64,000 bases of DNA from Candidatus Aenigmatarchaeota archaeon (GTDB taxonomy: Archaea > Aenigmatarchaeota > Aenigmatarchaeia > QMZP01), in contig JACPNN010000005.1 of NCBI GenBank assembly GCA_016185435.1, positions 22,588 to 86,587 on the forward strand, given 5' to 3'. The notes beneath the pieces are model-generated. The model did no database searches, was not told the DNA's origin, and saw only the letters and a list, made by a program, of their open reading frames with translations. Shown here one piece after another: positions 9,826-16,239 of the stretch. Position 1 is the first letter of the stretch. Each line of letters starts with the position of its first letter. The position numbers were made by a program, and so were the translations under genes.

Positions 9826-10191
9826 ATGCGTAAGCCGAAGAGCATTATCAGTATGCAGGACATAAAAAACAGCAGAATAAGAAAAGGCGTGCGCAGCATA
9901 GTAGAGAGGCTTGAGAAGTACTACAAGCCTGAAAAAATATACCTCTTCGGCTCTGCCGCAAGGAGCGATTTCTCAGAATACAGCGACATAGATCTTCTTG
10001 TAGTAAAGGAAACAAATGAGACGAGCATACAAAGGATGTGGGAAGTATACAGGATTTTAAAGGGCAAAAGCCTGCCGGCTGATATCATTGTTCTCACACC
10101 CAGCGAACTGACAGCCAGAATAAGGTCCCAAGACCCATTTATTCTGGAGATAGTGCACCATGGGATCAATATTTATGAAAGAGTGGCTTGA
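9826..10191 (+). CDS. minimal nucleotidyltransferase (MNT) antitoxin-like protein
   Basis: GS...DxD nucleotidyltransferase motif (LFGSAARSDFSEYSDIDLLVV). Confidence 0.8.
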   Translation: MRKPKSIISMQDIKNSRIRKGVRSIVERLEKYYKPEKIYLFGSAARSDFSEYSDIDLLVVKETNETSIQRMWEVYRILKGKSLPADIIVLTPSELTARIRSQDPFILEIVHHGINIYERVA

Positions 10192-10552
10192 GAAGGCTGA
10201 GAAGGACAGCAGGGCCGCAAAAAAACTGGCATCAGACGAGCAGTTATGGGAACTTGCATGCTTTCATTGCCATCAGGCGGCGGAGAAATCCTTGAAGGCG
10301 TTCTTGGTTTTCAATAAGGGCAAGCTTCCGAGAATTCATGACCTAGAGACCTTAGCAGCCATGTGCGCCGAAATAGATAAGGATTTTGGAAGATTCGCCG
10401 ATGATGCCATATTCCTCAACCCTTTTTATATAATATCCAGATACCCTTCAGCAGCCTCAGATGTCTCCATGGATATTGTGCACGCTGCGCTGGTCGCCGC
10501 TGACACCATTATCGCAGAGGTCAGAAGGAAGATAGAAAAACAGGCCCAATAA
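10160..10552 (+). CDS. HEPN domain protein (toxin partner of MNT)
   Basis: Overlaps the MNT gene end. HEPN-like helical protein with an Rx4-6H-like region (ISRYP...H). Classic MNT-HEPN pair arrangement. Confidence 0.7.
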   Translation: MGSIFMKEWLEKAEKDSRAAKKLASDEQLWELACFHCHQAAEKSLKAFLVFNKGKLPRIHDLETLAAMCAEIDKDFGRFADDAIFLNPFYIISRYPSAASDVSMDIVHAALVAADTIIAEVRRKIEKQAQ

Positions 10553-10578
10553 GGACCAGGGGGTTCTGGAGGGAATGA
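10549..10578 (+). repeat. 30-bp direct repeat copy 2
   Basis: Identical to 9711..9740; lies immediately after the HEPN stop. Confidence 0.85.
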
Positions 10579-10596
10579 CAAGCCGGTGCAAACAGC

Positions 10597-11007
10597 CTAA
10601 TGCGCTTCTCCAGGCAGCATCCTTTTGACTGTTTTTGCCCTGTCAAAATCAGAATCAAGCGAGACGACATATGTCGTCCCATTGGCCATGGCAGCCTGCA
10701 CAACCATGGCATCTTCAATGTCCAGCCTGAAGCTCTCAGAGTGCTCCAAGGCCTTTATCCTGTCCCAGAGGGAGAGCGAATAGATGACCAGCCCCTTGTA
10801 AAGCGAAAGGGATGAGAGGAACTTTTTCATGTCATGGATCTTCTTCCCCTCCCTCTCCATGACTATCAGGATGGAATCTATTTCAATGTCAGAAATTACA
10901 GCCCTGATGCTGCCTTCCATCACCCTTTCCAGAAACTCCTCACATTCCCTGTGCCTGTCCTGCTGGAGTTCGACTTCAAGAAAGACGCTTGCGTCTATAA
11001 GATACAT
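10597..11007 (-). CDS. vapC: PIN-domain ribonuclease (VapC-like toxin)
   Basis: N-terminal MYLIDASVFLE with acidic residues spaced as in the PIN fold; ~135 aa. Confidence 0.75.
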   Translation of the reverse strand: MYLIDASVFLEVELQQDRHRECEEFLERVMEGSIRAVISDIEIDSILIVMEREGKKIHDMKKFLSSLSLYKGLVIYSLSLWDRIKALEHSESFRLDIEDAMVVQAAMANGTTYVVSLDSDFDRAKTVKRMLPGEAH

Positions 11008-11293
11008 GTCTCCACCTGTCTGCCCTTATTGTATGTGCTTCATGCCTCAGGTCCTTTGCAGATTTTTTAACATGCCTCAGCATGCCCTTTATGGCTTCAA
11101 TGGGATTGGAAATGCCCATTCCTGCAGCCATTTTCCTTGCCTCTTCCATGCTGCCGCTCGAGTCTGCCCAGCTTTTCAAGGCTATTTCCGCAGCATGGCT
11201 TATCGAGCCTTTCTGGTAGCCAAACCTTTCCATTGAGGCCTTCCTGAAGCCCCTTTCGGCTTCGTCCGATATTATGACCTTCAATTGTCCCAT
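10976..11293 (-). CDS. vapB: ribbon-helix-helix type antitoxin (VapB-like)
   Basis: Small protein immediately upstream of and overlapping the PIN gene. GQLKVIISDEAERGFRKASMERFGYQKGSISHAAEIALKSW resembles RHH/CopG. Confidence 0.6.
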   Translation of the reverse strand: MGQLKVIISDEAERGFRKASMERFGYQKGSISHAAEIALKSWADSSGSMEEARKMAAGMGISNPIEAIKGMLRHVKKSAKDLRHEAHTIRADRWRHVSYRRKRLS

Positions 11294-11368: not shown

Positions 11369-11941
11369 CTATCCCCTGCTGATCCCCACCTTCAGCCTGC
11401 CGTTTTCTGTCCCGAGGTTCTCTATCTTAAGCCTATGGATTCCCTTCTGAAGGACCATGTCCCCTGCAATATCAATGGCCGGATAATGGAGTATCATTTT
11501 GAGGGCATAGCCTGCCCCAAGGCCGAATGCAAAGCTTGGCTCGATGTTGGCCAAAAACACTCCTCTCTCCATGTCGCGCATCCTGTTCTCAATGCTCCTC
11601 CAGTCGCCGCGCGAGAACACGAGCAAAGCGCTGCTGTTGGCGCGCTGCTTCAGCTTGATAGTATGCGACCCTGCAGCCTTGTCAATCCCTATGGATACAG
11701 GAGAGCCATAAAGGGAGACGAGACTCTTTAACAGGCTGCCGTCCTGGGATGAGATGTAAAAATGGGGCGGAGTAAGATAATTGTTCGATGAGACTTCATA
11801 GGCAGGCTTCTCGCCTATTCCCGGAATGTAAAGAGAGCTATTGCCATCATTGATTTTAAGCTGCACTTCAAATGCGCCGGCCAAAGCAAGAGGGATGGCC
11901 AAGGAAAAGAGCATCATGGGCATAAGATGCAGAGCCTTCAT
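11369..11941 (-). CDS. secreted hypothetical protein
   Basis: N-terminal signal peptide MKALHLMPMMLFSLAIPLALAGA. Confidence 0.5.
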   Translation of the reverse strand: MKALHLMPMMLFSLAIPLALAGAFEVQLKINDGNSSLYIPGIGEKPAYEVSSNNYLTPPHFYISSQDGSLLKSLVSLYGSPVSIGIDKAAGSHTIKLKQRANSSALLVFSRGDWRSIENRMRDMERGVFLANIEPSFAFGLGAGYALKMILHYPAIDIAGDMVLQKGIHRLKIENLGTENGRLKVGISRG

Positions 11942-12025
11942 AACTATTATTTAAGCCCCTCCCCTAAATAACATTCTGCCCTGCCGAATTGGCAAAGAAA
12001 AGGAGCAGAAGGGGCAAGAGAAAAT

Positions 12026-12742
12026 ATGGCAGAAACAGACGGAAGAGCAATAAAGGAAGGCGATTTTGCAGAGATAGATTTCATAGGAAGAGTGAAGGGC
12101 ACAGGGGAAATATTTGACCTGACAGTGGAGGATGCTGCCAAAAAGGAAAGCATATACAGAAGCGATGCCATTTACAAGCCCGCCTTTGTGATAATAGGCA
12201 CAGGCATGATGCTCGAATCACTGGAAAGGATACTAACCGGCATGAAGGAAGGAGAGGAGAAGACAATAGATATTGAGGCAAAGGATGCCTTTGGGCCCAG
12301 GGATGCCTCAAAAATCAGGATACTTCCTTACTCGGCCTTTGCAAAAAACGAGGTCATGCCTGCAGCAGGGATGTTCCTCGAGGTTGACGGAAAGAGATGC
12401 AAAGTGCAGTCAGCGGGTTCAGGCAGGGTAAGGGCTGATTTTAACCATCCCCTGGCAGGAAAGGATGTGAGCTACTGGGTGAAGGTGAGGAGAATAATCG
12501 ACAGGCCCGAGGACAAGGCTTCAGCTTATCTGCAATATCTGGGAATCGACTCCACTCCAGCCTTTTCCGATGGAAAGCTCTCGATTGCCACAAAAATCAG
12601 GCTGGATGATAAGCTCAAGGAGTTCTTTGACGGGCAGCTGAGGAAGCATATGCAGGAGGTCAAGGAAATTGCTTTTTCTGAGGAAAAACAGGAAGGAGAA
12701 CAGAAGTTTAAGGATGGGAAAACAGAAGGCAATCAACAGTAA
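12026..12742 (+). CDS. FKBP-type peptidyl-prolyl cis-trans isomerase (long archaeal type)
   Basis: GDFAEIDFIGRVKGTGEIFD...TIDIEAKDAFG has the FKBP fold signature with an insert-in-flap region. C-terminal acidic tail. Confidence 0.85.
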   Translation: MAETDGRAIKEGDFAEIDFIGRVKGTGEIFDLTVEDAAKKESIYRSDAIYKPAFVIIGTGMMLESLERILTGMKEGEEKTIDIEAKDAFGPRDASKIRILPYSAFAKNEVMPAAGMFLEVDGKRCKVQSAGSGRVRADFNHPLAGKDVSYWVKVRRIIDRPEDKASAYLQYLGIDSTPAFSDGKLSIATKIRLDDKLKEFFDGQLRKHMQEVKEIAFSEEKQEGEQKFKDGKTEGNQQ

Positions 12743-12747
12743 AGATT

Positions 12748-12763
12748 ATAAACATCTGTTTAT
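12748..12763. promoter_or_regulatory. palindromic operator site 1 (ATAAACA-TC-TGTTTAT), overlapping a TATA-like box and the start of the wHTH gene
   Basis: Perfect inverted repeat. Same motif family as the three sites upstream of ftsZ. Confidence 0.6.
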
Positions 12764-12776
12764 GATTATACAGTAT

Positions 12777-13037
12777 ATGAAAAAAGGGCCAGTCAAGAAG
12801 GAAATCATCAAAAAGATCCTGAAGCTTTTGAATGACAATCCCAAGGGAGTGTGGCTAAGGAAATTGGCCAGAGAAATAAAGGAACCTTTGCCTACAGTCA
12901 ACAAGTATGTCAAGAGGCCCGACTATGCAGGCCAATACATAATTGTCGAGAAATTCCCAAAGGAGCTTGGAGGCCATCTTATGCTCAAGCTCAATTACAG
13001 AAAGAGCGCTGAAGTGTACAGGATGCTGAGGGAATAG
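12777..13037 (+). CDS. small winged-helix-like DNA-binding protein (putative regulator)
   Basis: ORF-track ORF 12669..13037 trimmed to the internal ATG after the FKBP stop. Basic, ~86 aa, wHTH-like (LRKLAREIKEPLPTVNKYVKR). The start choice is uncertain; ATG at 12762 is also possible. Confidence 0.4.
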   Translation: MKKGPVKKEIIKKILKLLNDNPKGVWLRKLAREIKEPLPTVNKYVKRPDYAGQYIIVEKFPKELGGHLMLKLNYRKSAEVYRMLRE

Positions 13038-13153
13038 CCATTCCCTTTGAAATTTGCTTTGCCTAAATGTTCAGGAGAATATTTTTGAAGTCAAAATATA
13101 TTTTTTTAGTTAAAATCAGATTTGATAACAGAACCAAAATTGGCCAAATAACT

Positions 13154-13169
13154 ATAAACACATGTTTAC
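13154..13169. promoter_or_regulatory. palindromic operator site 2 (ATAAACA-CA-TGTTTAC)
   Basis: Inverted repeat of the TAAACA / TGTTTA half-sites. Confidence 0.6.
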
Positions 13170-13216
13170 TATAGATAAAAATTGTTATTGGAAAAGACCA
13201 GGATTTTTGAATTACT

Positions 13217-13232
13217 ATAAACATCTGTTTAC
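13217..13232. promoter_or_regulatory. palindromic operator site 3 (ATAAACA-TC-TGTTTAC)
   Basis: Inverted repeat, same family. Confidence 0.6.
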
Positions 13233-13270
13233 TGTTCAGGCCTTCAGAAACCGCTACCCATCCCAATATA

Positions 13271-13286
13271 GTAAACACCTGTTTAC
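13271..13286. promoter_or_regulatory. palindromic operator site 4 (GTAAACA-CC-TGTTTAC), ~25 bp upstream of the ftsZ TATA box
   Basis: Perfect 7-2-7 inverted repeat. Confidence 0.6.
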
Positions 13287-13310
13287 AGTCTATGATAGCT
13301 TTAAAAACCC

Positions 13311-13320
13311 TTTATTATAA
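13311..13320 (+). promoter_or_regulatory. TATA-like box of ftsZ promoter (tttattataa)
   Basis: A/T box ~20-27 bp upstream of the ftsZ ATG, consistent with an archaeal leaderless promoter. Confidence 0.45.
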
Positions 13321-13337
13321 GTATTATTTGATCTTCA

Positions 13338-14429
13338 ATGGCAGAGATGCTACTTCAGGGAAGGAAAGTCGACAAGGAAACAGAAGAGGATGAGGAACTG
13401 AGAAAAATTCTTGAGGCAAGGAAGGCCGAAATCAAGGTTGTAGGGGTCGGAGGGGCAGGAAACAACACTGTTTCCAGGCTTATGGCAGTCGGCATTGTAG
13501 GGGCTGAAACAGTTGCGGTCAATACTGACGCCCAAGATTTGCTTTATACGGATTCAGACCATAAGGTTCTTCTTGGGAAGGAGATTACCCAGGGTTTAGG
13601 GGCAGGAGCGAACCCAAAGGTTGGGATGGAAGCTGCAAAGGAGAGCAAGAAGGATATCAAGAAATACCTTGAAGGAGCAGACCTTGTATTTGTTACTTGC
13701 GGCTTGGGAGGCGGAACAGGGACAGGCGCAAGCCCGATAATTGCCGATGTGGCCAAGAAACTTGGCGCATTAACTGTAGGCGTGGTCACGCTTCCCTTTG
13801 CAATGGAAGGCAAGCAGAGGCAGAGGAATGCGTTCGAGGGCCTTGAAAATCTCGAGAGCGTAGTTGACACCTTAATTGTTATCCCCAACGACAAACTGCT
13901 GGAAATCGTCCCTGATGCAAGCATCACGACTGCCTTCAAAGTGGCAGACGAGGTGCTGGTCAATGCTGTCAAAGGCATAGCGGAACTGATAACAAAGCCC
14001 GGTCTTGTCAACCTCGACTTTGCCGACATAAGGGCTGTCATGGGCTCAGGCGGCCTGGCCATGATAGGCATGGGAGAAAGCGACACTGAAAACCGCGCTT
14101 TGGAATCAGTCGAGAAGAGCCTGCATAACCCCCTTCTTGACGTCGATATAGAAGGCGCCACAGGGGCGCTGATAAATGTGTCCGGCGGAGAGGACATTTC
14201 AATAAGGGAGTGCCAGGAGATTGTCGAAACAGTTGCAAACAAGATAAATTCCGATGCAAAGATAATCTGGGGGGCACAGATAATCAAGGAGCTTGGCGAC
14301 ACAGTAAGAAGCCTTCTGATAATAACAGGCGTCAAGAGCAACCAGATCTACGGCCCGGCCAAGACCTTCACGGGAGAGAGGAAGAAGGAAGTGGAGAATG
14401 TGCTTGGCGTGGAATTTATTGAGTCGTAG
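13338..14429 (+). CDS. ftsZ: cell division GTPase FtsZ
   Basis: Tubulin/FtsZ signature GGGTGTG, N-terminal GVGGAGNN, T7 loop NxDFAD. Confidence 0.95.
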   Translation: MAEMLLQGRKVDKETEEDEELRKILEARKAEIKVVGVGGAGNNTVSRLMAVGIVGAETVAVNTDAQDLLYTDSDHKVLLGKEITQGLGAGANPKVGMEAAKESKKDIKKYLEGADLVFVTCGLGGGTGTGASPIIADVAKKLGALTVGVVTLPFAMEGKQRQRNAFEGLENLESVVDTLIVIPNDKLLEIVPDASITTAFKVADEVLVNAVKGIAELITKPGLVNLDFADIRAVMGSGGLAMIGMGESDTENRALESVEKSLHNPLLDVDIEGATGALINVSGGEDISIRECQEIVETVANKINSDAKIIWGAQIIKELGDTVRSLLIITGVKSNQIYGPAKTFTGERKKEVENVLGVEFIES

Positions 14430-14492
14430 ATAATGATTATTCCCTTTCCCTGCCTGTTTCATTTTGAAAACAGGATCCATATTCTCAAAGTA

Positions 14493-15551
14493 TTATATAG
14501 GGAAATCATTCTGATAATCAGTTGTACCCTGAATCATCTCAGCCCGCCTATCTATAGTGTTTTCAATCTCAGGGCCAGTGGAAATCAGCTCGATGCCGCT
14601 GAAAATTTCTTTCATTCTCATTCTGTCCACATATTGTTCGATATTCTCCAGAAACAGTTTCGCTTCATCTGTCAGCTTTTCATATTCTGTCACGCCTTCA
14701 TTGCCAGCAAACAGCCTGTCAACGCATGTCATTGCCGTCTGAGTGGCCGAGTTCGCCTGGACAGCTTCAGCCGCAAGCCTTTTATCGAAAGGGCCCAGCC
14801 TTCTCGGCCTGCCGCTCACAGTCCCTCTCTCGCTGAGCCCCATCTTCTTTAGCCTCTCTTCCTTCCATTCCTTCCCCATGGGCCCGGGCCCGACCCTCGA
14901 TGTGTACGCCTTGAAGACGACAGTCACTTCACCAACATCCAGAGGCCCTATACCCACATCAGCGGCGAACTGGCTGGCTGTAGTGTCCTGCGAAGTCACA
15001 TGTGGATATCTTTTGTTGAAAAGAGAAAGGCCATAGCCATGCACGCCCTCCACAAGCACGCTCTTTCCGCCCCTGATGGCGCCAAGGACAGTTTTCTGCA
15101 CGTCTGCAAGGAAAGGCCTCAGCTCATGCACATCCTGCGCAAGCTTCGCCCTCCTCAGCACCCTGTCAGCCCTTGCATAGCCTGTTCCTGCTCCCACAGA
15201 CCCTATCCTTTCCACAAGCTCCTTTTCCGCCTCAATATGGCGCTGCTCGATAACAGTGCATCTGTAATCGATTTGCAGCCTCCTGCCAACATCATATTCC
15301 TCCATTTCCTTCAGGAGAATTTTAGGATTGATGAGAGTCCCCCTTGAAACCAGCAGCCTTGATCTTCTGTTAACAACTCCGCATGGCACCTGCCTCACGC
15401 TTTTGCCTGGGAAGATTGTATGGCCCGCCTGTGGCCCTCCGCCGGCCCTCACAACATAATCGAAATCATCTGCCATGGAAAGATAGGCGCATATCTTTCC
15501 TTTCCCCTCATCCCCATAGAAGCCGCCGACAACTATGTGCAGCATACGCAT
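14493..15551 (-). CDS. purA: adenylosuccinate synthetase (short archaeal type)
   Basis: P-loop GDEGKGK (in FYGDEGKGKICAY) and the GGPQAGHT-like motif. Start trimmed to the internal Met (MRMLHIVVGG) to avoid overlapping the upstream HD gene; the ORF track extends to 15659. Confidence 0.8.
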   Translation of the reverse strand: MRMLHIVVGGFYGDEGKGKICAYLSMADDFDYVVRAGGGPQAGHTIFPGKSVRQVPCGVVNRRSRLLVSRGTLINPKILLKEMEEYDVGRRLQIDYRCTVIEQRHIEAEKELVERIGSVGAGTGYARADRVLRRAKLAQDVHELRPFLADVQKTVLGAIRGGKSVLVEGVHGYGLSLFNKRYPHVTSQDTTASQFAADVGIGPLDVGEVTVVFKAYTSRVGPGPMGKEWKEERLKKMGLSERGTVSGRPRRLGPFDKRLAAEAVQANSATQTAMTCVDRLFAGNEGVTEYEKLTDEAKLFLENIEQYVDRMRMKEIFSGIELISTGPEIENTIDRRAEMIQGTTDYQNDFPI

Positions 15552-15570
15552 GTTTTTGGAGCGAAGATTT

Positions 15571-16239
15571 TTATTGCTGCTGCAAGTACCTTCGGCCTTC
15601 CCATTCTTCAAAAAATTCCTCCAGAAAATTCTCCATGAACCTGTGCCTCTCTTCTGCAATCTCCTTTCCTGTTTCCGTGTTCATCAGATCTTTCAGCAGC
15701 AACAGCTTCTCATAGAAATGGTTTATTGTTGTTGATTCTGCATTTTTATATTCCTCAAAGGTTTTGTGTTTTCCAGGCAATATATTAGGATTGTATATCT
15801 CTTTTCCCTTAAATCCACCATATGCAAAAGCCCTTGCTATCCCTATCGCACCAATCGCATCCAGCCTGTCAGCGTCCTGGACAATCATCCCTTCCTTTGT
15901 CCTCATTCTTGCCTTTACTCCAGCCCCCCTGAATGAGACGTTCCCTATGATTTCGCATACATGGGAAGTGACATGCTCTTCGACACATAATTTTTCCAAT
16001 AATTTTCTTACATCTTTTTCTACTATGGAAACATCACCATCATTAAATTTCCAGTCGGCAATATCATGCAAAAGAGCAGCAAGCTGCACGACAAAGAGAT
16101 CCGCTCCCTCCTTTTTGGCGATACGGACAGCGGTTTTCCACACTCTCCAGGCATGCCACCAGTCGTGGCCTGATGCCTCGTCTTCCATTCTTTTTCTCGC
16201 GTATTCGGCTGTCCGTCTCACGATAAGTTCCTGGTTCAT
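15571..16239 (-). CDS. HD-domain phosphohydrolase
   Basis: H...HD motif (ALLHDIADWKF) and metal-binding His residues (WWHAWRVW). Confidence 0.75.
   Translation of the reverse strand: MNQELIVRRTAEYARKRMEDEASGHDWWHAWRVWKTAVRIAKKEGADLFVVQLAALLHDIADWKFNDGDVSIVEKDVRKLLEKLCVEEHVTSHVCEIIGNVSFRGAGVKARMRTKEGMIVQDADRLDAIGAIGIARAFAYGGFKGKEIYNPNILPGKHKTFEEYKNAESTTINHFYEKLLLLKDLMNTETGKEIAEERHRFMENFLEEFFEEWEGRRYLQQQ

Follow-up and report, generated by a model that had tools for sequence, protein, structure and literature searches.

Control of archaeal cell-division genes by small transcription factors is already known. CdrS (with CdrL) is a ribbon-helix-helix protein, the open reading frame (ORF) of which lies 3 nt upstream of ftsZ2, is cotranscribed with it and shows a broad synteny within the Euryarchaeota (PMC8406309). 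Chromatin immunoprecipitation sequencing (ChIP-seq) of CdrS recovered 18 sites, one of them upstream of ftsZ1 (PMC8406309; Darnell et al. 2020 cited there). The aCcr1 protein of the Sulfolobales, a ribbon-helix-helix protein of 58 amino acids, targets the ESCRT-type division machinery, cdvA (PMC9976878). The locus described here was found in a 64-kb stretch of DNA (hereafter the window) from an uncultivated Candidatus Aenigmarchaeota archaeon (DPANN), in which a gene for a protein of 86 amino acids with a predicted winged helix-turn-helix (wHTH) fold precedes ftsZ. Four copies of one palindrome accompany the two genes, one (O_A) at the promoter of the small gene and three (O1 to O3) in the 300-bp spacer before ftsZ (Table 1). 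We put the probability at roughly 0.55 that the small regulator controls its own gene and modulates ftsZ, as a trait of one clade and with a sign of control that could go in either direction. To our knowledge, how ftsZ expression is set in FtsZ-dividing archaea is known only for the haloarchaea (CdrS), and we know of nothing for the DPANN archaea, which have tiny genomes and few regulators.

Like CdrS, the window protein is a very small, basic and sensor-less factor, the gene of which directly precedes an archaeal ftsZ and is associated with a palindromic motif; for CdrS an influence on division-gene expression through such a motif has been proposed or shown. The two differ in fold and size (ribbon-helix-helix of 70 amino acids or fewer against a predicted winged helix of 86) and in layout. 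Whereas CdrS and ftsZ2 abut and are cotranscribed, the window has the 300-bp spacer, a conserved run of seven T residues (T7) and a separate, conserved ftsZ core promoter, although the two genes may still be cotranscribed. Three phased sites upstream of the ftsZ TATA box also set the window apart from the CdrS case, and the broad synteny of CdrS contrasts with a linkage that is confined to one small Aenigmarchaeota clade. aCcr1 is likewise a small factor, active in the cell cycle, and binds a short box of palindromic sequence in a key division-gene promoter; its homologues also occur on mobile elements (viruses). O_A occupies a repressing promoter position like the aCcr1 boxes (PMC9976878), and in the window only the regulator's own site is placed in that way. 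The differences are the target, FtsZ rather than the ESCRT-type machinery, and the winged-helix fold. Searches of full-text literature brought up no account of a regulator with this fold at the ftsZ gene of DPANN archaea or Aenigmarchaeota. The original prediction considered an ftsZ operator array of this kind to be uncharacterized in archaea, which holds in so far as the known cases are ribbon-helix-helix proteins with another layout, but not in a wider sense, as CdrS-ftsZ2 and aCcr1-cdvA already link small transcription factors to division genes. As a type of switch the locus would be ordinary, with an unusual target and a regulator from an uncurated family.

The palindrome TAAACANNTGTTTA (TAAACA-N2-TGTTTA) has four exact matches in the window, all within 12749-13285. 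Four copies of a 7-2-7 palindrome starting at 12748, 13154, 13217 and 13271 had been claimed. These are the identical sites, counted one base wider than the core. The strict core that is common to all four is only 6-2-6, with R...Y at the seventh position (full form RTAAACA-N2-TGTTTAY); the 7-2-7 form is perfect at 12748 (A..T) and 13271 (G..C), and the remaining two sites have it in an imperfect version (A..C). The spacing was given correctly, with start-to-start distances of 63 bp for O1-O2 and 54 bp for O2-O3, which we take to be about six and about five helical turns and thus roughly one face of the DNA. O1-O3 are located 118-248 bp past the stop codon of the wHTH gene and ~400 bp from its promoter. 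None of 100 dinucleotide-preserving shuffles of the window contained an exact match, and allowing up to two mismatches added a single window match (1229-1242), against a chance expectation of 1.78. The contig flanks, which were reached via the flanking genes and extend ~10 kb before the window start (L100) and ~7 kb past its end (L103), contained no site with 0-1 mismatch. The palindrome is therefore not a generic repeat within the ~82 kb of DNA examined, which disposes of an objection that had been anticipated for that range. An origin by chance, or as a repeat found throughout the genome, has in its favour that the motif is A+T-rich and nothing more; considering the outcome of the shuffles, the lack of further copies and the conservation of the sites in relatives, its probability is negligible.

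The searched collections contained only two close relatives, L001 (GCA_053536595.1) and L002 (a Logan contig of 2 kb). In both the gene of an FKBP-type peptidyl-prolyl isomerase is followed by the wHTH gene, the product of which is 80% (L001) and 76% (L002) identical to that of the window; L001 continues with ftsZ (FtsZ 95% identical) and the L002 contig ends in the ftsZ promoter. All four palindromes are kept in the two loci at the identical 63/54 bp spacing. One-base changes are confined to O_A (L001 and L002) and O1 (L001), and O2 and O3 are exact in both. Between the window and L001, 46 of the 48 specified site positions are identical (96%), versus 129 of the 235 other intergenic positions (55%; Fisher p = 4e-9); for the N2 spacer positions the count is 5 of 8 (62%). 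The remaining conserved intergenic blocks are only the T7-run block and the ftsZ core promoter. Given that O1-O3 are kept at fixed spacing while the neighbouring DNA is at 55% identity, they are selected and not decaying relics, and the comparison supports purifying selection on the three ftsZ-proximal sites in the two related loci.

The sites are best read as protein-binding DNA, considering that the ORF across them is broken in L001 and that the Rfam search came out empty. More explicitly, a coding function was considered because the spacings are multiples of three and an ORF of 52 amino acids (13162-13320) runs across the sites; two stops interrupt it in L001. The minus-strand ORFs in the array region are not conserved in L002. 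A search of Rfam with 11500-14500 returned no match at E up to 1, and a structured RNA was also rejected on our own reasoning that a 6-bp stem with a 2-nt loop is unable to form a hairpin. Finally, a vestigial second promoter of the form O1-TATA-O2 was dropped, as the TATA-like TATAGATAAAAAT is replaced by G+C-rich DNA in L001.

The protein itself has exactly the same sequence as a hypothetical protein on deposit under the locus tag HYX24_02265. Lack of conservation of the ORF had been named as a possible flaw of the original prediction, yet the ORF is kept in L001 and L002. Since the ratio of non-synonymous to synonymous substitution (dN/dS) is 0.08-0.10, with dS >1, it can be taken for a genuine gene under strong purifying selection. 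Translation starts at the ATG at 12777, judging from the facts that the in-frame ATG at 12762 meets a stop in L001 and that all homologues begin with M(K/R)K(G/E)P. The best Pfam match was HTH_24 (E=0.0027), at 17.7 bits sub-threshold with respect to the curated cutoff of 21.9, and an NCBIfam search gave no match. AlphaFold2, run with nine sequences of the family, gave a confident model that has a winged-helix topology (helices 8-20, 27-34, 38-46 and 74-85; strands 55-60 and 67-72) and a predicted local distance difference test score (pLDDT) of 86.6. A Foldseek search of the PDB with this model recovered members of the MarR family as top matches, some solved with DNA, at a template modelling (TM) score of about 0.7 (up to 0.73), and nearly all of the top 50 matches were wHTH regulators. 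Sequence identity to the solved structures was 12-25%. The winged-helix assignment that had been made from the letters is in this way borne out by the predicted fold, which places the protein in a family outside the curated libraries.

Repressors of the MarR/ArsR/PadR type bind as homodimers to short palindromes over their own promoter and are autoregulating. The predicted fold of the window protein is closest to theirs, but with only 86 amino acids it is without the N- and C-terminal dimerization helices and the ligand pocket of MarR. On the basis of model and sequence it may thus be described as a minimal MarR/ArsR-like winged helix by fold and as a textbook autoregulator by its presumed behaviour. 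Between the window and L002 the FKBP is 93% identical and the intergenic DNA 83%, while the regulator is only 76% identical, and the regulators of L001 and L002 (L001:6001-6261, L002:1468-1728) are closer to each other than to that of the window (12777-13037). The recognition helix of the window protein shows two changes (LATVYKY to LPTVNKY), with unchanged operators. These observations suggest a faster evolution of the regulator gene than of its flanks, or recombination.

The regulator family is a small DPANN family. An exhaustive HMMER scan of 1.8 billion cluster representatives gave nine matches at E up to 0.001, and a scan of the GTDB species genomes gave 14 loci, of which seven are labelled as Aenigmatarchaeota and one as Nanoarchaeota, the rest coming from unclassified archaeal metagenome-assembled genomes. 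Every homologue with readable upstream DNA carries a palindrome at its own start, and in the window, L001, L002, L003, L013, L078, L004/5, L079, L098 and L080-L091 alike this operator lies over the core promoter or start (Table 1). The gene neighbours differ among the loci (at least six independent contexts) and the half-site changes with the protein subfamily. As the palindrome accompanies the gene across neighbourhoods and co-varies with the protein, it may be considered the cognate operator, and autoregulation is expected. On this ground the 86-amino-acid protein very probably binds the palindromes of the window. Autoregulation, which had been part of the original prediction, is well supported by this comparison, and the two-fold symmetry of the sites together with the gene-palindrome co-occurrence points to binding as a dimer. 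A residue-to-base code relating recognition helix to half-site was sought by eye and given up, because Y, H and N alternate in TV(Y/H/N)KY without a clean rule.

It could be argued that some other transcription factor, encoded away from the locus, uses the palindromes as its operators and that the wHTH protein binds something else or is no site-specific DNA binder. The link between protein and palindrome does rest on comparison, and some 70 unrelated contigs from metagenomes contain pairs of TAAACA-N2-TGTTTA as well, for the most part within other repeats. We nevertheless regard this as quite improbable, given that in at least six neighbourhoods the wHTH gene is accompanied by the palindrome or a co-varying form, always at its own start, a pattern that one would not expect of an unlinked factor. 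A scan of metagenome contigs for double palindromes recovered 72 loci. Nearly all were unrelated repeats, in tandem or CRISPR-like arrays or in contigs of low GC content; L013 was the sole locus with a homologue and none had ftsZ. The locus with the most similar-looking sites, L029, was discarded, as it is without credible ORFs. The pairs in the unrelated contigs (e.g. L021, L032, L062, L011 and L023) mostly form the core of regular repeats with periods of 61/71 bp, 73 bp and 33 bp, in CRISPR-like or tandem arrays, and the bare motif is for that reason not diagnostic of the regulator family outside its context.

The protein search also matched two large proteins, P0007 (1511 amino acids) and P0008 (1426 amino acids), with 4-5 matched stretches of the winged-helix module, and P0011 (320 amino acids), which has two copies of the module and an unrelated C-terminal domain.

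With respect to the promoter of the wHTH gene, the original prediction that one palindrome overlaps the TATA/start region is correct, O_A (-28..-15) overlapping the TATA-like ATTATAAA. Elements of this kind centred at -23..-27 from the ATG are common among the genes of the window, in which leaderless mRNAs are probably common as well, and the position of ATTATAAA would fit a leaderless or near-leaderless wHTH mRNA. It would follow that O_A sits over the wHTH core promoter and covers both the TATA element and the stretch bound by the polymerase, which is the classical archaeal position for repression. Oligo-T termination is a general archaeal feature, and the conserved T7 run is a probable terminator of the wHTH transcript. 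The ftsZ core promoter comprises two candidate TATA elements centred at -34.5 and -23.5 from the ATG, the second element after CCC being also given as TTTATTATAAG. GATAG and TATA elements of a similar kind are found upstream of ftsZ in relatives without the insertion (see below). As had been proposed, O1-O3 are all directly upstream of the ftsZ TATA box, with O3 ending 14 nt before TTTAAAAA, and none overlaps the TATA box or the start.

Taken together, the following course of events seems the most likely. A dimer of the winged-helix protein would bind RTAAACA-N2-TGTTTAY. At O_A this would exclude TBP, TFB and RNA polymerase, resulting in negative autoregulation, by which the protein would be held at a set level. 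The oligo-T terminator would separate the wHTH transcript from the three further sites before ftsZ. O1-O3, on roughly one DNA face and just upstream of the B recognition element (BRE) and TATA region of ftsZ, would then modulate formation of the ftsZ pre-initiation complex according to their occupancy. In archaea, a location of the sites right before BRE/TATA is typically that of an activator (Ptr2, TFB-RF1, and TrmBL1 or SurR in their activating mode). The multiple sites before ftsZ resemble those of these regulators in position only, not by homology. Phased operator arrays can also repress, via wrapping or looping. With O1-O3 upstream of the TATA box and not over it, either sign of ftsZ control would fit the sequence; we weakly favour a positive or architectural control over simple steric repression, since both the TATA box and the start of ftsZ are free of sites.

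The synteny of wHTH and ftsZ, which the original prediction proposed to follow in relatives, is kept in L001 (the L002 contig reaching the ftsZ promoter) and is missing in relatives with an 85% identical FtsZ and in the other homologue loci. The proposed control of ftsZ gains from the purifying selection on the three sites before it, but a dedicated ftsZ role is not a property of the family. In fact, several points weigh against ftsZ control. The arrangement FKBP-wHTH-ftsZ was found only in the window, L001 and L002, three close sequences (FtsZ 95% identical where available) that may reflect one evolutionary event. The other homologue loci with several kb of flanking DNA, including the 14 genome loci, have no ftsZ in the flank; the contigs L003, L098 and L099, of about 1 kb, are too short to show such a linkage. 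In L092-L097, loci from three lineages that carry the next-closest ftsZ (85% identical), the FKBP gene is directly followed by ftsZ, without a regulator. Moreover, archaeal sites upstream of a TATA box can activate, repress or do nothing, the Pfam match of the small protein is below threshold, the palindrome census covers ~82 kb of the genome, and all support for the proposal is comparative.

The FKBP-ftsZ spacers in L092-L097 measure 24-83 bp, and no palindrome within two mismatches was found near ftsZ in these loci. The adjacency of FKBP and ftsZ is thus ancestral. Given this adjacency without a regulator in the next-closest lineages, the regulator and its sites are a clade-specific insertion: the comparison shows that the segment with the regulator, O_A, terminator and O1-O3 (about 12743-13293, roughly 0.56 kb) was inserted recently and specifically in the clade of the window. 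In L078, L079, L004 and L013 the homologue is the first gene of a two-gene unit, of which the overlapping second ORF encodes a LAGLIDADG_3-type protein of 320-380 amino acids. In L079 the partner bears an HTH_20 domain at its C-terminus as well, and a fragment of a reverse transcriptase lies upstream. These associations suggest that the regulator derived from a mobile or selfish cassette. The combination looks like an undescribed wHTH and LAGLIDADG two-gene cassette with the operator on a shared promoter. The homing endonuclease I-TevI reportedly represses its own promoter. The homologues that overlap a LAGLIDADG_3 ORF resemble it, as an operator on the shared promoter would limit a potentially toxic nuclease; they differ from it in that the regulator is a separate small protein and not a domain of the nuclease, and the window copy is without an adjacent LAGLIDADG gene. 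The window copy is solitary, as is that of L003, with no LAGLIDADG gene directly downstream of the window regulator. An origin from viruses was also considered and rejected, as a scan of IMG/VR with the family alignment gave no viral relative.

The sole two-mismatch copy of the palindrome (GTAAACACCCATTTAC, at 1229-1242) is in the spacer between a divergent LAGLIDADG_3 gene (78-1124, minus), 11.6 kb from the wHTH gene, and a small ORF (1305-1496, plus) upstream of cysS. It was rejected as a real operator beside that gene, since it is at the chance level and no relationship between the encoded LAGLIDADG protein and the partners in the cassettes could be detected. Its coincidence with the LAGLIDADG association of the family is worth a note.

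The insertion allows for another explanation, namely that the palindromes came in with the insertion of a once mobile module, wHTH (+LAGLIDADG), and act for the regulator only, as auxiliary operators, looping partner or titration sink, the position before ftsZ being an accident of the landing site with little or no effect on ftsZ. The FKBP-ftsZ adjacency in the next-closest lineages, the LAGLIDADG_3-type units with the reverse-transcriptase fragment of L079, and the absence of ftsZ near any other homologue with several kb of flank are all in line with this, as are the two sites 64-69 bp apart that homologue promoters often have and that resemble O1-O2. O1-O3, however, are beyond the stop codon and the conserved T-run, ~400 bp from the wHTH promoter, with only 14 nt between the array and the TATA region of ftsZ; the three have retained their spacing while the DNA nearby has fallen to 55% identity, and a protein bound 14 nt from the TATA/BRE region would likely affect the ftsZ promoter. 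We therefore consider a module that serves itself alone to be rather unlikely. If the sites did serve the regulator alone, the family would still offer a clean case of family-wide operator-regulator co-evolution in an uncurated winged-helix family.

Control of ftsZ by the regulator, if true, would make this a clear case of an essential division gene that was rewired by insertion of a small regulator module, probably of mobile-cassette origin, and would provide a protein and a 14-bp operator, both well defined, for tests in vitro without cultivation. In a more specific and rather doubtful version, the control gene of a selfish wHTH and LAGLIDADG cassette would have become, through domestication in a single lineage of the Aenigmarchaeota, a controller that is dedicated to ftsZ transcription and set by its concentration, a wHTH counterpart of CdrS and aCcr1; among the DPANN archaea it would be the first candidate for a transcription factor of cell division. 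A broader form of this domestication idea would make the whole family cell-cycle regulators, considering that the paralogues of 104 amino acids adjoin a repeat-dense, origin-like spacer and an AAA+/wHTH gene. In these loci (L080-L091) the paralogue is followed by a non-coding gap of 700-850 bp and then by an AAA_22/ATPase_2 protein with a C-terminal MarR-like domain; a small P-loop protein (AAA_18/AAA_17) comes next in 6 of the 10 loci compared. The gap of L083 (6285-7126) is packed with CTTCACGTGAAC / TTCAC(A/G)T repeats and looks iteron-like or origin-like. An identity of the ATPase as Orc1/Cdc6 was unsupported by a PDB sequence search.

One may also think of the array as an element of the chromosome as a whole, such as a set of replication-origin boxes or a centromere-like site with a small adaptor. 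The 300 bp of non-coding DNA, the phased repeats and the A+T-rich stretch would agree with this, and small proteins on repeated palindromes are typical of partition systems. Archaeal replication-origin features (adjacent orc1/cdc6, ORB-type repeats) were nevertheless not found at the array: there is no Orc1/Cdc6, ParA, SegA or MinD-type gene among the neighbours, a partner ATPase of the ParA/SegA type is absent within about 10 kb on either side, the GC-skew shows no clear turn at the array and the sites are unlike the consensus of origin recognition box (ORB) elements. Furthermore, one copy is located exactly on the core promoter of the regulator, as in all homologues. The chance that the array is such an element is very slim.

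Table 1. Features of the window, palindromes of the homologues and gene pairs in related loci. Positions without a locus prefix refer to the window; identities are to the window protein.
Feature	Position	Strand	Remarks
FKBP-type peptidyl-prolyl isomerase gene	12026..12742	+	Pfam FKBP_C and FKBP26_IF; stop codon 6 nt before first palindrome
TATA-like ATTATAAA of wHTH gene	12744..12751	+	putative promoter element; centred about -29.5 from ATG; kept in L001 and L002
Operator O_A, TAAACATCTGTTTA	12749..12762	none	-28..-15 from wHTH ATG; exact match; overlaps TATA-like element
wHTH gene, 86 amino acids (MKKGPVKK...YRMLRE)	12777..13037	+	predicted H1-beta-H2-H3-wing and C-terminal helix
Spacer, 300 bp	13038-13337		sequence reading
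T7 run in conserved block ATTTTTTTAGTTAAA	run 13102..13108, block 13100-13114	+	kept in window, L001 and L002
Operator O1, TAAACACATGTTTA	13155..13168	none	-183..-170 from ftsZ ATG; exact match
Operator O2, TAAACATCTGTTTA	13218..13231	none	-120..-107 from ftsZ ATG; exact match
Operator O3, TAAACACCTGTTTA	13272..13285	none	-66..-53 from ftsZ ATG; exact match
ftsZ core promoter, GATAGC-TTTAAAAA-CCC-TTTATTAT...ATG	13294..13337	+	TTTAAAAA at 13300-13307, TTTATTAT at 13311-13318; 42/44 positions identical to L001
ftsZ, 363 amino acids	13338..14429	+	TIGR00065 E=1e-130; Pfam Tubulin and FtsZ_C
Adenylosuccinate-synthetase-like gene, convergent to ftsZ	14493-15659	-	intact, 388 amino acids
Homologue L003, 57% identity			two copies of TAAACA-N2-TGTTTA at a distance of 64 bp; end of proximal copy 2 nt from start
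Homologue L013, 51% identity			two copies of TAAACA-N2-TGTTTA at a distance of 64 bp; end of proximal copy 4 nt from ATG
Homologue L078, 60% identity	-18..-5		TAAACA-N2-TGTTTA, one copy
Homologue L004/L005, 53% identity	-16..-3		co-varying TATACAGGTGTACA
Homologue L079, 51% identity	-16..-3		TGGACACGTGTTCA, and TGTACACCTGTTCA 69 bp upstream, flanking TATA box
Homologue L098, 44% identity			AGAACAGGTGTTCA over start codon
Homologues L080-L091 (twelve loci, subfamily of 104 amino acids), 39-57% identity limited to residues 9-47			a single TGAAC-N3-GTTCA in each locus, downstream of TATA box and upstream of ATG
LAGLIDADG_3-type partner ORF	L078:6221-7366
LAGLIDADG_3-type partner ORF	L079:925-2067
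LAGLIDADG_3-type partner ORF	L004:1912-2910
LAGLIDADG_3-type partner ORF	L013:956-3	-
FKBP-ftsZ adjacency, example	L092:3273-5092
FKBP-ftsZ adjacency, example	L094:1599-3425
FKBP-ftsZ adjacency, example	L096:3305-5089

The wider surroundings of the locus gave some minor observations. The adenylosuccinate-synthetase-like gene, intact in the window, was called as two fragments of 180 and 156 amino acids in L001 (7690-8717), which may reflect a pseudogene or a frameshift in the assembly. Just before the FKBP-wHTH-ftsZ block, a HEPN-domain gene (10160-10552) is found beside a PIN-domain gene (10597-11007, minus), which overlaps a small upstream ORF (10976-11293, minus). The HEPN and PIN genes at 10160-11293 look like toxin-antitoxin-type modules, and in L100 a nucleotidyltransferase gene adjoins the HEPN gene.

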